From Myxococcales bacterium (lineage in GTDB: Bacteria; Myxococcota_A; Polyangia; Polyangiales; DASUME01): a stretch of DNA of 64,000 nucleotides. The stretch covers positions 2,592,001-2,656,000 of the forward strand of contig JASGJH010000001.1 of the NCBI GenBank assembly GCA_047601445.1, in the 5' to 3' direction. Under the pieces are notes generated by a model. That model was not told the origin of the DNA, ran no database searches, and worked only from the letters and a program-made list of their open reading frames with translations. Below, piece after piece: positions 4,376-57,599 of this stretch. The translations under genes were made by a program, and so were the position numbers. Every line of letters begins with the position of its first letter. Position 1 is the stretch's first letter.

Positions 4376-6310
4376 ATGAACAAGAAAGCTATCGCATCCG
4401 CGCTAGCGCTCGGCCTGGCGAGCACCGCCAGCGCTCAGCTTAAGTTGAAGGGCTCGGACACGCTCTTCGAGATGACCCAGGAGATGCTGACGCTCTGTCA
4501 GATCAGCCCCACCGACCTCACCTATGATGGTGGCGGTTCGGGCGGCGGTCAGGCCGCGATGGCCGCGGGCACGCAGCGCGTTGCTCCCATGTCGCGCTTC
4601 ATCAACGCCGCGGGTTGCAGCGGTGCCGGCCCCGGCGACACGACCACGCGCTCCGGCTACGCCCACTCGCTCGACGCGATCGGCCTCTTCTCCGACAACA
4701 AGGAAGACACCACCTGCGACGACCTCGTCCACGACGCCGTCCTCACGATTGACCCGGCGGCCAACGGCAACGCCGGCGGCGACCCTGCCACCGAGTGCCC
4801 CAACTGCTCCGGCAACCAGTACACCATCAGCCAGTGGCAGCAGGTCCTCCGCATCGTCTACACCGGCCGTCACGACAACGTCCCCGGCTACAACGAGTGT
4901 TCGTTCGACCCGCCCGGCGCCACCGCCGGCGCGCGCAACTGCAGCAGCGACGTCCGCTACACGCTGGTGAACAACTGGGGCAACCTTTTCCAGGGCGGCT
5001 GCACCAATCCCGAGTGCACCACCCTCAAGCACGCTTTCCGCCGCGACGACATCTCCGGCACCACCGACACCTTCCTCGCCTTGATCTCCGTCAAGACCAT
5101 GTTCGCCAGCAACAGCGAATACCAGGGCGCTGACATCTTCTGCAACGGCAGCGAGTTCGAGGACAAGGACCCGATCCGTCGTACCTGCAGCGGCAACGGC
5201 GGCACCGGCGGTGAAGACGTCTGCCAGCGCACGACCTTCGCCCGCGAAGTTCCCTCGGTCGGCGTCCGCGTCGGCACCCTCTACCCGCAGCTCGAGAACG
5301 TGTGGCCGGCCGTCACCGCCGCCATCGTGCCCCCCGCGGCTGCCCCCGGCGACCTCGGTCTCGTGCTCCCGATCGTGATGCCCACGGATCCGGCCCAGCA
5401 CTACCCGAACAACAACGCCTGCAACGGCGACTACAAGCTTGCCTCCATGCCCACCTCGACCAACGGCGAAGAGCGCTGCCCGAACGGCGACTTCAAGAAC
5501 GGCGGTCTTTGCTACTGGCCCGTCGACGACGCGGGTAACTTCGGCTGCGTCGTGCAGTCGAACTTCCGCCCCGGCACCGGCGCGCTCGGCTTCAACAGCA
5601 AGATGGACGCCCGCGTGTACAACCTGACCACGCGCCTCCTCAACGGTCAGATCCCCACCGTCTCGCGCAAGCCCTCGGCGGCGCAGAACCCCGCCAACCG
5701 CACGTTCATCAACGGCGCCTTCTACCGCATCCATCAGAAGACCGCGGAGACCCAGGCCACCGCCGGCACCTTCTGCCGCGAGACCAACGACACCGCCCAG
5801 ATCGGCTGCCTCGTGCAGGCCAGCCCCTGCTCGCTCGGCTACGCCGGCCTCGCCGCCCAGACCAGCGACGCCAACGGTGACCCCATCGCCAACACCAACA
5901 AGTCCCTCGGTATCCGCGCGCCGCTCGCCAGCGCCGGCATCCAGTACCCCAGCAAGACCACCGCTCGTCGCCTGCTCTCCACGCCGGCTGGCGGCGCCAC
6001 GGGCACCTGCTCGGACTTCGGCTCGCGCTACCCGCTGTCCCGCAAGCTCTGGTTCAACACCTTCGTGGGCTTCAATAACCTGGCCGCCGGTGGCGCCACG
6101 GCCGCCGAGCAGCAGCTCGCTCGCTGCTTCGGCGACCGTCGCTTCACGGACCGCGCTGCCAAGCACGCCGGCTTCATCCTCCTCACGGACAACACCTGCT
6201 TGACCGACACCCTCCCCAACCCCGCGACCGTGTTCTCGCCGGACCCCACCTGCACGCTCACGGACGACAACCCCAGCTACGAGTTCTCGACCTGCGCCGT
6301 CAACCCCTGA
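4376..6310 (+). CDS. Secreted Cys-rich PstS-fold (phosphate-binding-protein-like) protein, copy 1
   Basis: Signal peptide ending ASA-Q; PstS-like motifs KGSDT, GGGSGGG, PMSR, RRDDISGTTDTF, LGYAG, YPLSRKLW; 24 Cys; AGGAGG RBS. Confidence 0.85.
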   Translation: MNKKAIASALALGLASTASAQLKLKGSDTLFEMTQEMLTLCQISPTDLTYDGGGSGGGQAAMAAGTQRVAPMSRFINAAGCSGAGPGDTTTRSGYAHSLDAIGLFSDNKEDTTCDDLVHDAVLTIDPAANGNAGGDPATECPNCSGNQYTISQWQQVLRIVYTGRHDNVPGYNECSFDPPGATAGARNCSSDVRYTLVNNWGNLFQGGCTNPECTTLKHAFRRDDISGTTDTFLALISVKTMFASNSEYQGADIFCNGSEFEDKDPIRRTCSGNGGTGGEDVCQRTTFAREVPSVGVRVGTLYPQLENVWPAVTAAIVPPAAAPGDLGLVLPIVMPTDPAQHYPNNNACNGDYKLASMPTSTNGEERCPNGDFKNGGLCYWPVDDAGNFGCVVQSNFRPGTGALGFNSKMDARVYNLTTRLLNGQIPTVSRKPSAAQNPANRTFINGAFYRIHQKTAETQATAGTFCRETNDTAQIGCLVQASPCSLGYAGLAAQTSDANGDPIANTNKSLGIRAPLASAGIQYPSKTTARRLLSTPAGGATGTCSDFGSRYPLSRKLWFNTFVGFNNLAAGGATAAEQQLARCFGDRRFTDRAAKHAGFILLTDNTCLTDTLPNPATVFSPDPTCTLTDDNPSYEFSTCAVNP

Positions 6311-8959: not shown

Positions 8960-11900
8960 ATGGTAACTGGCCTACGCCGAATTCGGCTCCTGGCGCTGGC
9001 ACTCGCCTGTGCAGAGCTCGCCGCCTGCGGCGACAATCTCGCTGACAAGACGCAAGGTGAGCTCGCCGCTCCAGACGCGGCCGCAGACGTAGAGGACGCC
9101 CAAGTTCCCGAGCAAGTCACCGATCTCTCGTGCACGCCCGTAGTCACCTCGGACAACCTCCCAGCGCGCACGGCCGCCATGTCCGAGCGCGGCGGCGGTG
9201 GCGGCGGTTCTGCGGCCGTGACCACCGAGCAGCTCTTCCAGGCCTTCAAGGGGCGCTGCGGCAACTGCCACTCGAGCGGCTCGAATTCAGGCAATTTTGC
9301 GATTCCTCTGGCCTCCAATTTCGCGACCACCTTCGATTCGGTCGTACTTTCGTATATCCAATCGAACGATCCCGACAAGGTGATGCCCCCAATCGACTCA
9401 CCCGAGGGCAAGCTCTACCAGGACCGTGCCGCGGACGACCCTGTGCGCAAATTCGCCGAGCTCACCCAGGCGTGGATCGCTGCGGGCAAGCCTGCCGACG
9501 CCTTCTTCCCACCCGCCGAAGCAACGCCCGTGGGGGTCGGCTTCACTTTGCCGCGCCGCGTGGGTCTGGCCCTGACCAACCTGGGCAATTGCATTCCGAG
9601 CCCGGACCTGGTGGGCACCGAGACCCAGGAGAGCCAAAAGCTCGACGACATGTTCGCGGGTTTGAAGAGCTCCGACGAACTGCCCGATCGCCTCGAAGCA
9701 ACGGATCTCGTCAGCCTCGACTCCGCGGTGCTCGCAAGCCACGGCGTGATCGGCTTTGCCCCCGCCTACACCCTTTGGGCCGACAACGCCAAGAAGATGC
9801 GCGCGGTGCGCGTGCCGCGCGGCAAATCCATCGAATTCGACGCGGCCACGCAGAGCTTCAAAATCCCGGACAACACCCGCTTCTACAAGACCTTCATGCG
9901 CGAGGTCGTGGATCACCGCGGCAACAAGAGCTACCGCAAGGTCGAGACCCGGCTCATCGTCGCGCGCGCGGACATCGAGAAAGAAGGCTGCGATCCGGAG
10001 CCGCAAGCGCTGTTCGGAACCTACGTGTGGAACGAAGCCGAGACCGAGGCCGTGCTCAACAAGGACCGCTTGCGCAACGGCAGCGGCTTCCGCGACCGCC
10101 TCATCACGTACATCACGGACGAGCAAAAGGCCGACGAGCTGATCGCCGAGGGCCCCGAAAACATCCAAGCTGCTCTCGCCGATGCGCACCTTAGCCGCCA
10201 CTACGGCTTGCCCGGAAGTGAGCGTTGCAATCATTGCCACATGGGCTCCGGATCCAAGAGCTTCATCCTTGGCTTCACGCCGCTCCAGATCAATCGACGC
10301 CCGCTGGACCAGGGCGGCGTCATCGAGCCGGCCGAGCGCGATGAACTCAACCAGCTCCAGCGCCTGATCAGCTACGGCGTGATCACCGGGATCGACCCAG
10401 CGCACCTCGATCAAGTCAACCTACTGGAGAACTCCCAGGGCGATCGCAAGCCGCGCAATGACTATGAGCTCAGGGCCCAGGGCTACATGGTCGGCAACTG
10501 CGCCCACTGCCACAACCCGCGCGGTTATCCCTCACGCCTCGCACGCGAGCTGCGGGACGGCCTCATCTTCGCACCCAGCGCCGAGGACGGGCACGGCATC
10601 TTCCAGTTCCCGCTCGACAAGGTCAGCCCACGCATACGCCGCGGCTCCAAGCTCGACCACTCGATCCCGTACCTCTCGCCCTCGCTGTATGACCTCGCTG
10701 GCCAAGGCTACTCGTACAAACTCCACGATGAACTGACCAAGAATCCTGACCATACGGTCGACGCTCCTTGGCGCAGCCTGATCTACCGCAACGTGGACGC
10801 GCCGTTCTCGTACTCGGCCGATTTCGCCATCTTCCCGCACATGCCCATGGACACGCCCGGTTACGACTGCCGCGCCCGTCGCATTCTAGGCTCGTGGATG
10901 GTGAGCATCCCGGCCAAGTTCAAGTACGGGGCACTCGGTTGCGTGGACGCATCGGTCAACCCAAATCGCAACACCATCGACCACCACCTTGGCGAGACGG
11001 AAGTCATCATTCGCACGAGTGACAAGGAGTGGACCTATGGCGAGGCCGTGGGCGGCACTCGGCTCACTTCCGATGAGCTTGACGCCATCGAGCACGATCC
11101 ACAGCAGTACGCAGAGGTCAAACCCAGCGACTCGGACTTCTTGGTGGAGAACCTGCGCGCCCAAGGACGCGTCAAGCAGTTCACGATTAGCTCACGCTAC
11201 AACGACTGCCAGGACCCTAGCGTCGACATGGTCGACCCGGATATTCTGGCGGGCAAGCGTGTGACCCCGTCCAGCGTGCAAGCCTGGCCCCTGCGCGATG
11301 CCGATGGCAAGCCAATGATTGAAGCTGCCCCCGACGCAGGTGTCGATGCTGGGACCTACTATGCCACCTACGACTTCGGCAGCCCGAACGACATAGAGCT
11401 CGGCACCACGGGCATGCCTAGCCACTCGCACTGGTCCGAAACCGACCTCACGGAGACCACATCCAAGTGGGAGCCGCGGCGCTCCGATTGGCAGGACCCC
11501 GTGGTGGACAAGAAGAAGTCTGCCTGGACCGGACACGACGACGACACCTGGGAGTACTCGGCCATCGACTTGCTCGAGAAACTGCCCAAGGTCGCCGACT
11601 ACCGTACGTTTGCCACCACCGATCTGCCGGTCACGCACTGGCTCGCGAAGCCCGAGTGCGATCTCTCAGCGCAGCCCAAGGACTCGACGTTCACGGGCGC
11701 GCAACGGATGCGCTGGATGGGCGCGGAAGGCTCCTCCGACACCCCCGTGTACATGCAGTCGCCAGGCGCCTTCGTGTTCGGCCAGGTTTGTTCGAGCTGT
11801 CATGGCCCGAAGGCAGACTCCAAGGGCCGCCAGGCCGCGACCATCGCCGACATGACGGCGGGCGAGACGCGCGTCGCGAACCTGCGCGACGGTTTGCTCG

Positions 11901-47837: not shown

Positions 47838-50177
<2,340 letters not shown>

Positions 50178-50229
50178 TCGCGAAGGGATTTTGGTGGCAC
50201 CCGAGATCGCGAGACGGCACCATGCGCCC

Positions 50230-51045
50230 ATGAGCCGCGACGCGATTCCCTACGAGCTCGAAGGCATGGTGTCCACGGTCACCGTGCTGCGCCTGCTGAC
50301 CGACGATCTGGCCTCCGTGCAGAAGGCACTGCGCAACAAAATCGAGCAGATGCCCGGCTTCTTCCAGGACGCCGCGGTCGCCGTGGACCTCTCGGTACTC
50401 GAGGGAACAGACGACGACGCGGAGGAAGATCCGCCGCGCGCGCGCCGCGAGATCCCGCTGCAGAAGATCGTCACCATGCTGCGGGAGCTCAAGCTGGTGC
50501 CGGTGGGCATTCGCTACTTGCGGGAGGCGCGGCGCGCCGAAGCACGTGCCGCGGGCCTGGGCATGCTGCGGGGCTCGAGCCGCAAGCCCACCAGGAGCGT
50601 CCCCAAGGATCCGAACGTCGCCGCCAAGCCGGTCGACGACGCGCGAGCCCAGGACGAGCGCCGCAGCGGCAACGAACGACGGGTCGACGGTCCCATGCCG
50701 GCTCCCATCGTGGTCCCGCCCTCCACGCTCATCCTGCGTACGCCCCTGCGCTCCGGGCAGGTGGTCTACGCCGAACAGTGCGACGCCGTGGTGCTCTCCC
50801 ACGTCAATGCCGGCGCCGAGCTCATCGCCGACGGCAACATTCACGTGTACGCCTCGCTGCGCGGACGAGCCTTGGCTGGAGCGCACGGCAACGAAGAGGC
50901 GCGCATCTTCTGCAAGAGCCTCGAGGCCGACCTGGTGGCCATCGCTGGTTGCTATCTTCGCTCCGACGAAATTCCCGAAAATCGGCGCGGAAAACCCGCG
51001 CAGATCTATCTCGAGAAGGGCCAGCTGGTCATCGCAGATCTGTAA
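50230..51045 (+). CDS. minC: Septum site-determining protein MinC
   Basis: PGFF, PLRSGQ, VNAGAELIADGNIHVY..LRGRALAG. Confidence 0.92.
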   Translation: MSRDAIPYELEGMVSTVTVLRLLTDDLASVQKALRNKIEQMPGFFQDAAVAVDLSVLEGTDDDAEEDPPRARREIPLQKIVTMLRELKLVPVGIRYLREARRAEARAAGLGMLRGSSRKPTRSVPKDPNVAAKPVDDARAQDERRSGNERRVDGPMPAPIVVPPSTLILRTPLRSGQVVYAEQCDAVVLSHVNAGAELIADGNIHVYASLRGRALAGAHGNEEARIFCKSLEADLVAIAGCYLRSDEIPENRRGKPAQIYLEKGQLVIADL

Positions 51046-51070
51046 GCGCAGCCACAGCATTCGGCATGAA

Positions 51071-51095
51071 ATGGGGCCTGCCTGCGAGGCCCCAT
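51071..51095 (+). terminator. Hairpin between minC and minD
   Basis: atggggcct-gcctgcg-aggccccat; weak U tail. Confidence 0.45.
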
Positions 51096-51336
51096 ACGTG
51101 TTTCCAGCTCACGTTTGCCTACATTAGATCACACGCCAACCATCCGAAATCGTTGCCGAAAATTTGTCCTCGCTCGCGTTTTCGCGGTTCATGGGCAAAC
51201 GCGCACGCATCCACACGGATCCGAGCGCCCAAGACAGCAGTTTCAGACGCGACGAGGAGCTCGGGTAATCCGGGCGGGTGATCGAGCAGGGCATGGCGAG
51301 ATCGCGCGTAGCTCCGAGAACGCGGGGAGGTCCGAA

Positions 51337-52164
51337 ATGGCAAAAGTGATCGTCGTGACGTCCGGCAAGGGCGGAGTCGGAAAAACCACCACCAGCGCGA
51401 GCATCGCGGCCGGCATGGCCATGCAGGGGTTCAAGACCGTGGCGATCGACTTCGACGTCGGTCTGCGCAACCTCGACCTGATCATGGGTTGCGAGCGGCG
51501 CGTCGTGTACGACCTGGTCAACGTGGTGAAGGGCGAAGCGACCCTGCGTCAGGCCCTCATCCGCGACAAGCGCATCGAGAATCTGTTCGTGCTCCCGGCC
51601 TCGCAGACGCGCGACAAGGACGCGCTCGACTTCGAAGGCGTCGGCCGCGTGATCGACGAGCTCAAGGACCTCGGCTTCGACTACATCCTTTGCGACTCCC
51701 CGGCGGGCATCGAGAAGGGCGCCCAGATGGCCATGTACTACGCGGACGAGGCCATCGTGGTGACCAACCCCGAGGTGTCCAGCGTGCGCGACAGCGACCG
51801 CGTGCTCGGCCTGCTCGACGCCAAGACCCGCAAGGCGGAGCTCGGCGTGCCCATGAAGACGCACCTGCTCGTGACCCGCTACTCGGCCGAGCGCGCGCTC
51901 AAGGGCGAGATGCTCAAGGTCGACGACATCATCGAGCTGCTCGGCATCCCCTTCCTCGGCGTGATCCCCGAGAGCAAGGCCGTGCTGAACAACTCCAACC
52001 AGGGCACACCCGTGGTGATGGACCAGGAGTGCGACGCGGCCGTGGCTTACGCGGATGCCATCAAGCGCTTCCTCGGTGAGGAACAGCCCCACCGCTTCCT
52101 CACCGCTGAAAAGCGCGGCTTCTTCTCTCGCCTGTTCTCCCCCTCCAACGCCTACGCGGGGTGA
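51337..52164 (+). CDS. minD: Septum site-determining ATPase MinD
   Basis: TSGKGGVGKTT, DFDVGLRNLDL, ERRVVYD, DSPAGIE, PEVSSVRDSDR, C-terminal GFFSRLF amphipathic helix. Confidence 0.96.
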   Translation: MAKVIVVTSGKGGVGKTTTSASIAAGMAMQGFKTVAIDFDVGLRNLDLIMGCERRVVYDLVNVVKGEATLRQALIRDKRIENLFVLPASQTRDKDALDFEGVGRVIDELKDLGFDYILCDSPAGIEKGAQMAMYYADEAIVVTNPEVSSVRDSDRVLGLLDAKTRKAELGVPMKTHLLVTRYSAERALKGEMLKVDDIIELLGIPFLGVIPESKAVLNNSNQGTPVVMDQECDAAVAYADAIKRFLGEEQPHRFLTAEKRGFFSRLFSPSNAYAG

Positions 52165-52169
52165 GCGCC

Positions 52170-52475
52170 ATGAACAGCTGGCTCAAGTTCTTCAACAAAA
52201 AACCCGAGAATTCGGCCCAAACGGCCAAGGACCGTCTGCAGATCATCGTGGCGCGCGAGCGCACGGCCTGCGGCGGCGCGCCCGGTTACTTGCCCCAGCT
52301 CCAGCAGGAGCTCATGCAGGTCATCGCCAAGTACGAGCGTGTGGATCTCGACCGCGTGCAGGTGAACATCGACCGCAAGGGCGATACCGAGGTTCTCGAG
52401 CTGTGCATCATGCTGCCCGAGGGCCAGGAAGCTCCCGTCCAGGCGCCTCTGCGCGGGCGCCCGCTGTTCGCGTGA
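52170..52475 (+). CDS. minE: Topological specificity factor MinE
   Basis: SAQTAKDRLQIIVARER...LQQELMQVIAKY...VLEL. Confidence 0.92.
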   Translation: MNSWLKFFNKKPENSAQTAKDRLQIIVARERTACGGAPGYLPQLQQELMQVIAKYERVDLDRVQVNIDRKGDTEVLELCIMLPEGQEAPVQAPLRGRPLFA

Positions 52476-52587
52476 TCGCATAGAGATCGCGCGAGGGCCC
52501 ACAATGAGCAAAGGCGAGTCCGTGAGGGCTCGCCTTTCTAGTTTCTGCTTCTGGGTCGTACCTGTGCCGGGCACGCGTACGTTTTCG

Positions 52588-53304
52588 TTACTGATTGACC
52601 TTGCGAGCGTTCTTCGGCGGCTGCCACTCGAAGGTCTTGGCGTCGAGCTTGCGGTTGAACTTGGGCGACTTGAAGTCGATGCGGTTGCGGTTGCCGCTGG
52701 CGTCCAGGATCAGCACGCGATGCACGAGGCCCGCGCGGTCGGCCTGACCGTCCACGTAGAACAAGATGCGCTCGTAGTGAGGACTCTTCACCTTGGGCAT
52801 CAGCTCGAGCACGTAGCCCCCGGGGAAACCCTGCTGAGCCGAGTCGAGCAGACGGAACGTGAAGTCGTTCTCGAGCTTGCCTGTGCCGGTGAGGAAGGCG
52901 AGCGCTTGAGGTAGCTCCGATTCGCTGATCGGTCGCTCGAAGACCTGACCAGGCTCCTTGTCTTCCCCGGGCTCGTAGACGATCAAGCGCGACCCGTTGC
53001 TGACGATGACCTTGCCGTTCGGCGCCGCGTAGTTCCAGCGCATCCTGCCGGGCTTCTGGAAGGCCACGGTGCCCGAGGACTTGTCGTATTTGTCGTAGAG
53101 CCGGTGGAAGTAGGTCTGGTAGAAGCCCGCTTCGACCGACGTGGTCTGGTCGTAGAAGGCCTGGACCTGCGCAGCGACTTGTTGAGGTGTCACGCCTGCA
53201 ACGGAACTTTCCGCCGCGGCCAAACCTGAGACGAGGCTGACGACAACACACGCCAAGATCGAAAGAAAACGTACAGAACGGAACTTGGTCTCGGCAGGAT
53301 TCAC
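52588..53304 (-). CDS. lolA: Outer membrane lipoprotein carrier LolA family
   Basis: A.FYQ, SSG.VAFQKPGRMRWNY..P...IVSNG; signal peptide. Confidence 0.85.
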   Translation of the reverse strand: MNPAETKFRSVRFLSILACVVVSLVSGLAAAESSVAGVTPQQVAAQVQAFYDQTTSVEAGFYQTYFHRLYDKYDKSSGTVAFQKPGRMRWNYAAPNGKVIVSNGSRLIVYEPGEDKEPGQVFERPISESELPQALAFLTGTGKLENDFTFRLLDSAQQGFPGGYVLELMPKVKSPHYERILFYVDGQADRAGLVHRVLILDASGNRNRIDFKSPKFNRKLDAKTFEWQPPKNARKVNQ

Positions 53305-53617
53305 GATTTTTCCCCGCGCTCGTTGTGAAGGGCCGTACTCGTTGGTTGTGGCCCCTGCTACGAGACAGGTCAATCGGCCCCCCGATTCAAAGCGAAATCG
53401 CCGAGAAACTCGCTGTTTCCGCGCGCCAACGCGTCCAATACTCCAGAACCACGGGCGAATTTCCAAAGCCTTGATCTGCGCGCAAACGCTTGCCTAGGAT
53501 GGCCGACGTGGCGATTTGAGCACGGTGCGAGAACGCCTTTGTGACGAGGGAGACAGGCCCAAAGCCGGGGAACGCGAGACGTGACGCGCCTCGAGCTGTT
53601 AGCTGGGAGGGATCGAC

Positions 53618-53815
53618 ATGGCCAAACAAACGTTCGATTCGCGGATGACGCTCGCAAACCTCGAAGAGCAGCATCGAACGCTGAAACGACAGGTGGCTTA
53701 CCTGGAACGTCGTGCCTTTCTAACTCCCACCGAACAGCGCGAAGCCACGGACCTCAAGAAGAAGAAGCTCGCGACCAAAGATGCCATCGCCGCACTGCGC
53801 GCCGGCATGAACTAG
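53618..53815 (+). CDS. Small coiled-coil protein, DUF465/YdcH-like
   Basis: L..EH..L...V..LE...LKKKKLATKD.I; GGAGGG RBS. Confidence 0.75.
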   Translation: MAKQTFDSRMTLANLEEQHRTLKRQVAYLERRAFLTPTEQREATDLKKKKLATKDAIAALRAGMN

Positions 53816-53865
53816 TAGCGACGTAATCTCTCGAGCGGTCGTCGACGTCGGACGCCGCACCTTCC

Positions 53866-53900
53866 GGAACCCCGCCCGCCCATGAGCGCGCGGGGTTTCT
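53866..53900. terminator. Hairpin between convergent genes
   Basis: ggaaccccgc...gcggggtttc. Confidence 0.5.
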
Positions 53901-53939
53901 CCGCTTCTATGCCGGGCGTTCACGAGCCGCAGGAACGTC

Positions 53940-54314
53940 TCACGAGCCTGAAGAGGCCGGAGCTTCCTCGCCGCCGGCAGCGCCCAGGTCGCGCAGGGTG
54001 ACGGCCAGGTTGGTGCGCCAGTCGGGCGTCAGACCCACGCCAGCATCGCCGGCTTCCTCGCGACAGAGGGCCAGGTAGTGCTTGGCGCGCGCACGCTCGC
54101 CGGTGCGGAAAGCCGTCATGCCGGAGAGGTAATAGAAGCGCGACCGCAGCTCGCGATCCATCTCGGGAACGTTCGGCTCGAGGTCGGTCAACCACGTCTG
54201 TGCGTTCTCGTAGCGGGCCTCGCTGAAGGCCTGCTCGGCGTGCCTCAAGTCATCGCGCAAGGCCGCGCAGCCGAAGAACAAGACACCAACCAGGCCCAAC
54301 CAAACGATGCGCAT
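53940..54314 (-). CDS. Small TPR-like lipoprotein
   Basis: MRIVWLGLVGVLFFG-C lipobox; YYLSGMTAFR.G...A.HYL. Confidence 0.75.
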   Translation of the reverse strand: MRIVWLGLVGVLFFGCAALRDDLRHAEQAFSEARYENAQTWLTDLEPNVPEMDRELRSRFYYLSGMTAFRTGERARAKHYLALCREEAGDAGVGLTPDWRTNLAVTLRDLGAAGGEEAPASSGS

Positions 54315-54395
54315 CGTGCGGCGCACAATACCTGCACCGAGGTTACGGCGACAAGCGAGCGACTCACTCACGGACAAGGCCGCGCCCATGCAGGC

Positions 54396-54434
54396 AAAAA
54401 AAAGCGCTCGCGGGGACCGCCACCCAGCGAGCGC
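54396..54434 (-). terminator. Strong intrinsic terminator
   Basis: Minus strand gcgctcgc...gcgagcgc followed by 8 T. Confidence 0.85.
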
Positions 54435-54532
54435 CAAGCTTTGTATGGAAGCGCGAAGCGATCTGAAAAGCGAAGGGAGGAAAGGATAAGCAAGCCAAGG
54501 TGGGCCTTGGGGCCCTCACACCAACCAACCGA
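54396..54532 (-). ncRNA. Candidate sigma54-dependent small RNA (~135 nt)
   Basis: Lies between a sigma54 -24/-12 element and a strong terminator; internal hairpins and a CU-rich stretch; no credible ORF. Confidence 0.6.
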
Positions 54533-54542
54533 GGTGATACCT

Positions 54543-54559
54543 AGCAACGCTGATGCCAA
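54543..54559 (-). promoter_or_regulatory. Sigma54 promoter
   Basis: Minus strand TTGGCATCAGCGTTGCT matches TGGCAC-N5-TTGCW with exact GG-N10-GC spacing. Confidence 0.7.
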
Positions 54560-54607
54560 GCCTTCTGGCGCGCGTGGGTGATGCACTAAATCGCATGTGA
54601 TCGCAGG

Positions 54608-54650
54608 TGGTTACACGAGTTTCACAGCGGTTTCATATTGTGTTTCAACG
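54608..54650. promoter_or_regulatory. Tandem AT-rich repeats, candidate activator binding sites
   Basis: GTTACA/GTTTCA units at 11-12 bp intervals (minus strand TGAAAC x3, TGTAAC). Confidence 0.5.
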
Positions 54651-54828
54651 CACCAAAGCCGGCATCGGTTATGACATCTATGTCTGTCCCTAGAATAGGG
54701 TTCAGGCGACCGGCCAACATTCGAAACAGGTGGCCTACAAATTTTTGGTCGCCTTGCGACTTGCGGCACCCGATTGGGCCGATCTAGGCCCAGTCCCGGT
54801 TAGACCGGTGTGTCGGAGCTGTCACACC

Positions 54829-56166
54829 TCAGCCTGCGACGTCGAGCTCGATATCGATGGCGAAGTCGTCGTCGCTGGCAGAGGTCCCCGTGTTGTCGAG
54901 CCACATGCGCGTATCGAGAGCGCGCTCGTCGCCGAGCGAACCGAGATACGAAGCAAGCTCGGGCACGCTCTCCATGAGCCGCTCGACGTATTCGCGTGCG
55001 AGGAACAAGACGGTCGAGCGCTGCGCCGCGGTGACGGTGGCGGTGGCGGGGGCGCCGTTCAAGAGCGCCATTTCGCCGAACACGTCGCTCGAGCCGAGGG
55101 TCGCTAGCAGGACCTTCTCGTCGCCGGCTCGCTTCCAGACATCCACGCTGCCTTGCAGGATCACGTAGAGCCCCCTACCCGGCTCGCCCTCGCGGATCAG
55201 GTCGGTCTGTGCCGCGACCTCGTGGGCCACGAAACGTCGCACGAGATCGATGCGCTGCTCGCGACTCAGCGGGCGGAACAACCGCGACGTGTTGATCAGG
55301 TTGGTCACCAGGCGCTCGCGCGTGAACTTGGCGAGCGCGCGCGCGATGGCAGCCGCTCCGTCGGACAGCTGCCCGAGCGCCGCGACGTGCAGCTCCAGTA
55401 GGTCCGCGTCGCTCGTGGCCACCACGTGCGCGCTGCGGGGCGTGCGTGAAAGCAAGGCCATTTCCCCGAACAGAGCACCTTCGTGCAGCGAGGTGAGGTG
55501 GGTCTGTGAGCCGTCCTGTTCGTCGCGGGAGATATCGAAGTCGCCGCGCGCCGCCAGGAAGAAGCTCTGACCTTCTTCGCCCTGCGTGATCACGCGTTCG
55601 CCAGCGCCCTTGCGCACGAGCGTCATGGTCGCGAACACGGCGGTGAAGTCGTCGTTGCTGAGCTCGCTCAAGAGAGGAATGGGCGGCAGCGCGCCAGCGA
55701 ACCTGAGTGGCGGCGTCTCCTTGCCCAGCTGCTCCGCAGCTTGGAACAGCGCATCCCCCGTGAGCTGCAGGAACGCGAGGTCGCGGGCAGTCACGGACAG
55801 CTGCTCGTCGGCAGGCACAGGACGGGCGCCGCGGCCGATGCGCCCTTCGGCGCAGTAGAGCTCCGCCACGGCCGACACGAGCGGCGCCAGGCGCGGGTCG
55901 AGTGCGCTCAAGATCTTGATCGCGACCAGGGCACGCAGCGGGTGTCCCTCATTGGCAGCCTGGCGCGCGAAGGTCGTGTACACGACGGCCGCGGATTGGA
56001 CTTGTCCGAGCGCGAGCAAGCAGTCGGCCACGCGCAGGCGCGCGTCGAGGTGCGCAGGCTGCGCGGCCAGCGCGCAGAGATAGCCTGCGAGGGCCTGCGG
56101 GAACTGCCGTTGCGCGAACGCCTGGTCGGCGGCCGAACGAGCTTCGAACACGGTAGTGGGGATCAC
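54829..56166 (-). CDS. TPR + tandem cyclic-nucleotide-binding domain protein
   Basis: Two FGEMALL motifs (PRSAHVVA, PATATVTA); N-terminal TPR; GTG start inferred. Confidence 0.85.
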   Translation of the reverse strand: MIPTTVFEARSAADQAFAQRQFPQALAGYLCALAAQPAHLDARLRVADCLLALGQVQSAAVVYTTFARQAANEGHPLRALVAIKILSALDPRLAPLVSAVAELYCAEGRIGRGARPVPADEQLSVTARDLAFLQLTGDALFQAAEQLGKETPPLRFAGALPPIPLLSELSNDDFTAVFATMTLVRKGAGERVITQGEEGQSFFLAARGDFDISRDEQDGSQTHLTSLHEGALFGEMALLSRTPRSAHVVATSDADLLELHVAALGQLSDGAAAIARALAKFTRERLVTNLINTSRLFRPLSREQRIDLVRRFVAHEVAAQTDLIREGEPGRGLYVILQGSVDVWKRAGDEKVLLATLGSSDVFGEMALLNGAPATATVTAAQRSTVLFLAREYVERLMESVPELASYLGSLGDERALDTRMWLDNTGTSASDDDFAIDIELDVAG

Positions 56167-56267
56167 GCAGGCACTGTACCAGCGATGGTCTGGACCTCGG
56201 GGACCAAAAAAAAGCCGCCATCTGCCCTGGCGATTCCGTAATCGAGTACACTTGGTTCTCACGCCAG

Positions 56268-57599
56268 ATGAGCCTCGCGTGCACGACTTGTGGACACCCC
56301 ATCCCCGCCGGGCAATTTCGCTGCGGGAAATGCGGGGCCGTGCAGGAACGAGACCTGGAAGGGCCCGTCGAAAGCCCCGAGCGCGGGCCCTCGCGCCCAC
56401 GTTTGCGCACCCAGGCAGCCGATGGAGGTTCTCTGAACGTGGAGTCGAGCGCGAGCGACGACGAGCAGGCGCGCGACTTCGTGGTCCCGCGCGGTACCTT
56501 CGCGTCCGAGGTTCCGCCGCAGCCTAGCCAGGAGAGCCACGAGGCGGAGTCGAGCAGCCGGCGTGAAGAGGCAGAAGAGCGCCCGCTCGCGGCGCGTGGG
56601 CCGGAGGGGCGCCCCTCGGAAGCCCGTGCGGCAGAGGCGCGTTCGGTGGAGCTGCGCGCAGAGGCTCGCGAGGCACCGCACGCGGAGCACGCGCGCGAGT
56701 CGGCGACGTCGGAGGCACGCAGCTCGACCCGTGAAGCGCGCATCTCGGCCAACGAGTCGGGCCCCGTGAAGGTCAGCAAGTCCTCGCACTCGAGCCAGCG
56801 CCTGCGCGTGGCGCGCGCGCCGGAGCGCCCGCCCTATCTCGCTTCGGAGATCCTGCGGGAGGACATCGCGCCGCGCGAACCGGGCAGGAACATCCTCGCG
56901 GCGATCATCAGCGTGGCAGCCATCGCAGGCTTGATCGGTGTGCTGGTGGCGGGCTTGCATACGGTAGCAGCCATCGCGTTGGCGCTCCTGTTCATGGCCT
57001 TGTTCGGCGTGGGCCGCCTCAAGCTGGCTTACACCACCCGTGCGACGGCAGTCGCCGCGTTGTCGGGAGTCGCGCTGGTGGTCATTGCGTGGACACGCCA
57101 CGCGGGGGGCGGCAGCGCATCGGATCTACTGCTCGCGATCGGCACGCCGCTGTTGGCGGGTTCTCTCTACGTTCGCTCGTGGTACCGAGGTTCCATCGCG
57201 GCTCGGACACTGGTCGGGTTGTCGCTCGTGCCGAGCTGTCTGTGGGCGTTCTTGACGAGCCACCGCGAGCTGCTCTCGTTGGAGTTCATCTGGCAGTCGT
57301 GGCTGCCCGCTCTCACCTGGTACGTGTTCGTCATCCTGTGCCTGTTGGCGCTGCTCGCGTTCATGGGCGACGAGACCACGGGCGGCTGCACCGCCTGGGC
57401 GCTCGGACTCTGTGGCTGGTACGCGGGCTATGCGGGCGTGCGCTTCGCGCTGGAAGTCGATACGAGCGGCCCGCTGCGCACGCTCGGCTTGGCCGAACCC
57501 GCGCTCATCGCACCGCTTGCGGTGGCGCTGGCGCAGCTGGTCTCGCACGTGGTGGGTCGCCGAACACGGCGGCACACGCAGGTGCTGGCGAGCGGCTGA
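56268..57599 (+). CDS. Zinc-ribbon + multi-pass membrane protein
   Basis: CTTCG...CGKCG N-terminus, charged linker, multiple hydrophobic helices. Confidence 0.75.
   Translation: MSLACTTCGHPIPAGQFRCGKCGAVQERDLEGPVESPERGPSRPRLRTQAADGGSLNVESSASDDEQARDFVVPRGTFASEVPPQPSQESHEAESSSRREEAEERPLAARGPEGRPSEARAAEARSVELRAEAREAPHAEHARESATSEARSSTREARISANESGPVKVSKSSHSSQRLRVARAPERPPYLASEILREDIAPREPGRNILAAIISVAAIAGLIGVLVAGLHTVAAIALALLFMALFGVGRLKLAYTTRATAVAALSGVALVVIAWTRHAGGGSASDLLLAIGTPLLAGSLYVRSWYRGSIAARTLVGLSLVPSCLWAFLTSHRELLSLEFIWQSWLPALTWYVFVILCLLALLAFMGDETTGGCTAWALGLCGWYAGYAGVRFALEVDTSGPLRTLGLAEPALIAPLAVALAQLVSHVVGRRTRRHTQVLASG

Follow-up and report, generated by a model that had tools for sequence, protein, structure and literature searches.

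A candidate sigma-54-dependent small RNA gene with its own terminator in one genus of Polyangiales myxobacteria

The small regulatory RNA (sRNA) Pxr of Myxococcus xanthus and other Cystobacterineae is described in PMC5568312 as an intergenic RNA of ~100 nt that has a predicted sigma-54 promoter and an enhancer site, folds into several stem-loops ending in a terminator and belongs to an Hfq-less host; the pxr homologues examined there all have nla19, which encodes a sigma-54 activator, on one side and a NADH dehydrogenase gene on the other. The origin of Pxr is reported to lie within the Cystobacterineae, and a 2021 review discusses it as the sole individually studied myxobacterial sRNA (PMC8538405). 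Regulatory RNAs of myxobacteria beyond Myxococcus are almost unexplored; our literature search, the coverage of which stopped short of subscription journals, turned up no description of an sRNA from Sorangium or any of the Polyangiales. Here we analyse a candidate sRNA gene in a window of 64,000 nt (positions 2,592,001 to 2,656,000 of contig JASGJH010000001.1, assembly GCA_047601445.1) of a Myxococcales bacterium of the order Polyangiales, whose genome we call G000. From the letters of the window alone, the unit had been put forward as an unannotated, sigma-54-dependent sRNA gene at 54396-54650 (hereafter the original prediction). It sits between two protein genes, and the whole unit lies on the minus strand; positions are those of the window unless stated otherwise, and minus-strand features are read from the higher to the lower number.

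Like Pxr, the candidate is a myxobacterial intergenic RNA with a sigma-54 promoter, an enhancer-like site and a terminator in a host without Hfq: the search of the G000 genome found no hfq gene, which agrees with the statement in PMC5568312 that Hfq homologues were undetected in the sequenced myxobacterial genomes. Unlike Pxr, it is flanked by a TPR/cNMP-binding gene and a lipoprotein gene rather than by nla19 and the NADH dehydrogenase gene, no match to PF00158 (the sigma-54 activator domain) falls inside the window, and the genomes of its relatives are labelled Polyangiales. It is location and taxonomic range, and not a comparison of sequences, that set the two RNAs apart. The Qrr sRNAs of Vibrio, which depend on LuxO and sigma-54, are short, have activator sites upstream and an intrinsic terminator downstream and act by base pairing; GlmY and GlmZ of the Enterobacteriaceae depend on GlrR and sigma-54, with activator sites far upstream. 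The candidate resembles Qrr in its short length, sigma-54 promoter, upstream activator-type site and terminator, and it resembles the GlmY/GlmZ genes in combining such a promoter with an activator-type site far upstream. It differs from Qrr in being single copy, in lacking Hfq and in its unrelated sequence and host, and from GlmY/GlmZ in its fold and host and in having no overlapping sigma-70 promoter (a scan of 53400-55400 found none). C/U-rich, Hfq-independent sRNAs that are not sigma-54-driven, such as RsaE/RoxS of Firmicutes and sX13 of Xanthomonas, display their C-rich motifs in the loops of hairpins and base-pair with ribosome-binding regions rich in G. With these the candidate shares an Hfq-less host and pyrimidine motifs, predicted to be exposed, that are complementary to Shine-Dalgarno-like sequences, whereas its own motifs, CUUGGCUU and UCCU, lie mostly in linkers. 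No Rfam family was matched: at the gathering thresholds of Rfam 15 there was no match in the window or in eight homologous loci, with Qrr, GlmY/GlmZ, CrcZ, 6S and all other families staying below threshold, and the matches obtained at E values up to 10 were chance ones to the terminator hairpin only. Judged from its sequence, the candidate is a new RNA belonging to a known kind of regulator, the sigma-54-driven sRNA.

The promoter of this unit is an exact -24/-12 box, TTGGCATCAGCGTTGCT at 54559-54543 (minus strand; GG at 54557-54556, GC at 54545-54544), which at 54558-54543 reads TGGCAT-N5-TTGCT with the correct spacing and stands straight before a gene-free stretch. The sigma54 element claimed at this position was borne out: TGGCAY-N5-TTGCW matches only here in the 64-kb window, versus 0.10 matches expected (one or more in 10 of 100 shuffles), and 18 times in the 9.5-Mb genome (66% GC). 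A run of at least six T within 200 nt downstream follows just one of these 18 boxes, namely the sRNA box. The genome holds a single copy of rpoN and 53 matches to PF00158 over the cut-off.

Searching 41 genomes with BLAST at the DNA level, we found the unit in three of nine same-genus genomes and in none of the 31 others. G007 gave the best match (84% identity), which covers 54559-54398 and whose limits coincide exactly with those of the unit from promoter to terminator. The exact terminator pattern was present in three contigs of the species-genome collection, which coincide with the three same-genus BLAST genomes, and in two metagenome contigs, the metagenomes having been searched with this one exact pattern. 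A covariance model (R1), built from the RNA part alone of six copies (alignment A3), matched 7 of the 10 family genomes including G000, i.e. six of nine relatives, and added G002, G008 and G009. The RNA is present in G002, G003, G004, G007, G008 and G009 and absent from G001, G005 and G006; it is single copy in each genome, and the only other model match in G000 has an E value of 0.57. In larger samples, 15 of 151 genomes of the order matched at E <= 0.05, seven of them from the same genus (g1, G000 included), and 2 of 151 genomes of the class at E <= 0.01. Eight matches outside the genus were rejected, as they mostly comprised the terminator part and all of them lacked a T-tail as well as any sigma-54-like box in the 230 nt upstream; within these order and class samples the RNA was not found outside the genus. 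In total there are nine copies (G000, six same-genus metagenome-assembled genomes of Polyangiales and two metagenome contigs), which we divide into group A (G000, L009, G007, L008 and G004), group B (G003 and G002) and group C (G009 and G008).

The proteins that flank these copies are only 52-60% identical. The -24/-12 box is in register in all nine, 146-172 nt ahead of the end of the U-tail, and reads TGGCA[CT]-N5-TTGC in eight and TGGCCT-N5-TTGC in one. It is also found in the three copies recovered by the RNA-only covariance model, although the 5' end of this model partly aligned onto the boxes of those three. The original prediction had made its case depend on promoter and terminator being conserved in relatives, and both are kept across the nine copies.

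The predicted sRNA spans ~137 nt of the minus strand, from a putative start at 54532, 12 nt after the -12 C, to the last U of the tail at 54396. Its intrinsic terminator (54434-54396) is formed by the arms GCGCUCGC and GCGAGCGC with an inner GGG/CCC (8 + 3 bp) around the loop UGGCGGU, followed by eight U at 54403-54396; a simple terminator scan missed it because its inner loop exceeds the limit of the scan. Over the copies, the terminator helix comprises 12 pairs, with 92.5% of 106 cells paired, and three pairs are changed on both sides (seven cells): U-A to C-G in three copies, C-G to U-A in two and G-C to A-U in two. Neither the observed pairing nor the covariation score was reached in any of 500 shuffles, and slid controls were 35-66% paired. 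As the rows are few and related, this covariation is supportive rather than statistical proof. The tail has 5-9 U in the seven copies of groups A and B except G002; in G002 and in group C it is interrupted.

At the other end of the RNA, a UG-rich 5' arm (GGUUGGUUGGUGUGA, 54530-54516) precedes hairpin 1 (GGGCC-CCAA-GGCCC, 54515-54502). The arm is identical or nearly so in the five group-A copies, has another sequence in group B and is missing in group C; in five of six copies folded (first 62 nt, local folds), although not in G000, it pairs weakly and with many G-U pairs with the CUUGGCUUGCUU stretch. Hairpin 1 is GC-rich and abuts CUUGGCUU on its 5' side in all seven copies of groups A and B, at -9.4 to -14.0 kcal/mol. 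Its stems vary in a compensatory manner: GGGCC(C)/G(G)GCCC, GGGCG/CGCCC, GAGGAG/CUCCUC and GGCGG(G)/(C)CCGCC. Group C lacks both the arm and hairpin 1, and its predicted 5' end lies near CUUGGCUU. RNAalifold on a MAFFT alignment misaligned hairpin 1 and gave a different, weak helix, and model-fitted alignments misalign it as well; because of this, hairpin 1 was judged from single-sequence folds, and the formal count was made for the terminator alone. On this basis compensatory changes are seen in both hairpins, the covariation for which the original prediction had proposed to look, and the hairpin, the CU-rich tract at 54485-54473 and the GC stem with eight U that it had described are all in place at the right coordinates.

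The same observations bear on the idea that the block is not an expressed RNA but an element acting at the level of DNA (such as a region that regulates the flanking genes, with a shared terminator) or a decaying remnant. By eye, a convergent gene ends close to the group-B terminator and could share it. A remnant, however, would not be expected to keep the box, a palindrome at fixed distance, compensatory hairpins and a U-tail where the flanking proteins have diverged to 52-60% identity, and the sigma-54 box is directed into a stretch that is free of genes up to the terminator. We regard such a DNA element or remnant as very unlikely.

A small lipoprotein gene starts on the same strand 81 nt past the terminator (ATG at 54314) and is adjacent to the RNA in seven of the nine copies. 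This raises the question whether the unit is a cis-acting leader or attenuator, in which the sigma-54 promoter would serve the 54314 gene and the terminator would be a point of regulated read-through, and the original prediction had indeed named an attenuated leader of this gene as its alternative. The gene, however, has a promoter-like element of its own that is not part of the RNA (minus strand; TTGTCG at 54354-54349, 18 nt, TATTGT at 54330-54325). This -35/-10-like element is conserved in all seven loci, as TTGTCG-N18-TATYGT in the five group-A loci and with a TATCKT box in both group-C loci. In each of the seven, just 8-10 nt without a Shine-Dalgarno sequence separate the end of the -10-like box from the ATG, which suggests that the lipoprotein mRNA is probably leaderless; for the same reason, the start codon of a read-through transcript would be without a ribosome-binding site. 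Nor is the linkage between RNA and gene obligate. The copies of group B keep the RNA without the gene: G002 has the cNMP-binding gene 5' of the RNA and no lipoprotein gene downstream within the locus, and in G003, the locus of which is cut at the contig start, none is visible downstream. Conversely, the three RNA-less relatives (G001, G005 and G006) all keep the lipoprotein gene, and in the 560 nt upstream of it none of the three has the sigma-54 box, the palindrome or the T-run. In G001 (locus L030), the stop codon of the cNMP-binding gene and the lipoprotein ATG are 66 nt apart, with an identical promoter-like arrangement and no RNA module. The gene without the RNA, the RNA without the gene and the separate promoter element together indicate that the predicted RNA module (~450 nt) is separable and that its presence varies within the genus. 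These points contradict the leader, as does the strong conserved terminator, and we hold it to be highly improbable.

The lipoprotein itself carries the lipobox LFFGC and has no Pfam match; the -35/-10-like pair was seen in the window (54314-54354) and in L002, L003, L008, L009, L017, L018 and L030. In G005 (L032) and G006 (L031), the gene comes after a different, membrane-protein-like gene.

The transcript is also extremely unlikely to code for a small protein. G000 does contain a frame of 54 codons with a TTG start (54528-54364), which crosses the terminator and lacks a Shine-Dalgarno sequence. Among the nine copies there is no shared open reading frame (ORF), six are without any ATG, the longest frames vary in both start and peptide, and the gaps in the alignment of the RNA copies are not multiples of three.

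Upstream of the promoter, a palindrome, aGACA-TAGA-TGTCat at 54685-54671 of the minus strand (core GACATAGATGTC, 54684-54673), is a candidate binding site for the activator (enhancer) ~150 nt 5' of the predicted start, the usual location of an activator site. In all seven loci with upstream sequence, GAC[AG]-N4-[TC]GTC occurs 125-135 nt 5' of the TGGCA box; the remaining two copies are cut by contig ends ahead of this region. The original prediction had drawn attention to tandem TGAAAC repeats at 54608-54650 instead. These are present on the minus strand between palindrome and promoter, at 54647-54642, 54635-54630 and 54624-54619, with a degenerate TGTAAC at 54615-54610, but they amount to three exact copies (of 12 in the window) and one degenerate copy rather than an extended array, and they are missing from the output of Tandem Repeats Finder. 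As relatives show just loose GAAA(C/T) copies at this position, the repeats are the weaker candidate for an enhancer, and the palindrome GACA-N4-TGTC is the likely activator site of the RNA. The spacing of the exact copies (12 and 11 nt) suggests that the TGAAAC repeats are possibly a bend or a secondary site. Between palindrome and promoter we saw by eye no good match to the IHF consensus. The stretch from the TGAAAC copies to the box also contains a direct repeat of 10 nt (ATCGCAGGTG twice on the plus strand, 54590-54609), to which Tandem Repeats Finder gave a score of 33.

Within one mismatch of TGACA-N4-TGTCA there are 33 sites in the G000 genome, four of which stand 80-220 nt 5' of a loose sigma-54 box (0.46 expected). 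Good boxes are found at three of these four pairs, namely at the sRNA and at two further places, given here in G000 genome positions. At 8267209 (minus strand; L029 ~5179-5380), a sigma-54-type promoter and a palindrome, one of the two perfect TGACA-N4-TGTCA palindromes of the genome, precede a gene for a lipoprotein of 732 aa without Pfam match. At 9394797 (minus strand; L028 ~9770-9910), the same combination precedes an operon for a secreted protein of 218 aa and then a terpene synthase. The shared arrangement points to a small regulon in which the RNA, the 8267209 gene and the 9394797 operon would answer to one activator. A sigma-54 activator with an FHA domain (579 aa) is encoded ~5 kb from the 9394797 promoter, at G000 9387706-9389445, and is one lead to the activator of the RNA.

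Taken together, the -24/-12 box, the palindrome 100-200 nt upstream, the rpoN gene and activators of the host, the terminator and the lack of coding potential support a stand-alone, enhancer-dependent sRNA gene that would be independently terminated. The enhancer-controlled sRNA gene of the original prediction holds at the level of architecture: promoter, palindrome and terminator are conserved in the copies, the hairpins are compensatory and no ORF is conserved. We consider it fairly probable that an independent sRNA gene of ~137 nt is transcribed here by sigma-54 with an enhancer-binding protein and that its product pairs in trans without Hfq. RNA polymerase with sigma-54 would bind the box at 54559-54543 but could initiate only once an enhancer-binding protein, the gene of which is not in the vicinity, occupies the palindrome (~150 nt upstream) and has been activated by its signal; the intrinsic terminator would end transcription. 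The A-poor, CU-rich product would then act by base pairing, with CUUGGCUU and the UCCU tract pairing with purine-rich regions around the ribosome-binding sites of targets and lowering their translation.

The candidate seed is CUUGGCUUGCUU (54499-54488), the best-conserved stretch between the hairpins, which begins with the CUUGGCUU motif (54499-54492). This motif is present in eight of the nine copies, G003 having CUUGUUUGCUU in its place. Further on lies the pyrimidine tract CCUUUCCUCCCUU (54485-54473), with an anti-Shine-Dalgarno-like UCCU core. The original prediction had regarded this tract as the seed; the UCCU core within a pyrimidine-rich stretch indeed recurs in all nine copies, but the exact CCUCC does not, and the best-conserved motif is CUUGGCUU. 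A strict pattern of eight pyrimidines with UCCU gave eight tracts in six of the nine copies, with a predicted mean unpaired probability of 0.63-1.0, and both CUUGGCUU and UCCU are found mostly in linker regions outside hairpin loops. Pairing with ribosome-binding regions would fit the composition of the RNA, the modelled accessibility of its motifs and the missing Hfq.

Several observations weigh against this picture. The activator gene is not nearby, the closest PF00158 match lying ~17.5 kb off and outside the window. Only nine sequences from one genus are at hand, with related rows and low covariation counts. The exact CCUCC is kept in just three of the nine copies, and in the minimum-energy fold of the G000 RNA an alternative hairpin takes up CUUGG. 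As a whole, the RNA folds with an energy that is ordinary compared with shuffles (-48.2 kcal/mol, z = -0.40), so that the case rests on conservation instead. As for targets, the longest perfect complement elsewhere in the genome is 15 nt, which is within chance, and 5764 crudely predicted start regions show no clear enrichment of sequences complementary to the conserved motifs (permutation fraction, i.e. the fraction of composition-matched permuted words scoring at least as well, 0.048-0.75). The target test is a weak one, as the gene starts were taken from a rough caller based on ORFs and the GC content of third codon positions (5801 ORFs, 78% of the genome). Duplex energies of the whole core over the same 5764 regions, scored without an accessibility term, average -28.7 kcal/mol and were uninformative. 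One start region, at genome position 5546967 (minus strand) before a predicted gene of 265 aa, has the complements GAAGCGA, GAAGCCAAG and AAAGGAGG within 35 nt; they match three parts of the RNA, are not collinear and may be due to chance.

Sponge action is the main rival to seed pairing. The RNA would be sigma-54-driven here as well but would serve as a decoy, its CUU, GCUU and UCCU titrating an RNA-binding protein or mimicking the 3' end of 16S rRNA; CrcZ is a known sigma-54-dependent sponge RNA. The composition of the candidate is strongly skewed (A 8-14%, U 25-37%, CU-rich, in a genome of 66% GC), and each copy contains ~8 CUU (71 over the nine RNA bodies) and ~4 GCUU, which in divergent copies recur by number and not at fixed positions. 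No single seed shows clear target enrichment and, as Hfq is missing, another RNA-binding protein would be expected. Yet we have no candidate for the binding protein, the RNA is short (~90 nt outside the terminator), its motifs are not seen in repeated hairpin loops, unlike those of known sponges, and the one 8-mer that is well conserved, CUUGGCUU, is more in keeping with a seed than with a repeat. We therefore regard a sponge as unlikely. Decidedly unlikely, in our estimate, is the specific form in which an A-depleted, CUU-rich decoy made on the enhancer signal would soak up a pyrimidine-binding chaperone that replaces Hfq, or would bind Shine-Dalgarno sequences in competition with the 16S rRNA tail; if true, such competition would bring about a global retuning of translation.

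Provided that an sRNA is indeed made from this locus, its gene would be the second sigma-54-driven sRNA gene among the myxobacteria, and unrelated to the first. Its presence and absence within one genus, combined with an Hfq-less host, would make a clean system for following the origin of an RNA, for finding its driver among ~50 activators and for the question of how targets are found without Hfq. The unit is ready to be described as a new RNA family, while it brings no new principle.

Of the neighbouring genes, the TPR/cNMP-binding gene (54829-56400, minus strand) is the 5' neighbour of the RNA, and a small DUF465 gene (53618-53815) follows downstream of the lipoprotein gene in minus-strand order. 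The order TPR/cNMP-binding gene, RNA, lipoprotein gene, DUF465 gene and lolA is kept in groups A and C. The wider neighbourhood (50158-53466) is ordinary, with minC, minD and minE on the plus strand and lolA on the minus strand. Right past the stop codon of the cNMP-binding gene, at 54807-54828 (minus strand), there is an inverted repeat, GGTGTG...CACACC, in the place of which L009 and L003 carry a GACAG-N4-TGTC palindrome, ~267 nt 5' of the sigma-54 box. The inverted repeat could terminate the upstream gene or serve as a further activator site.

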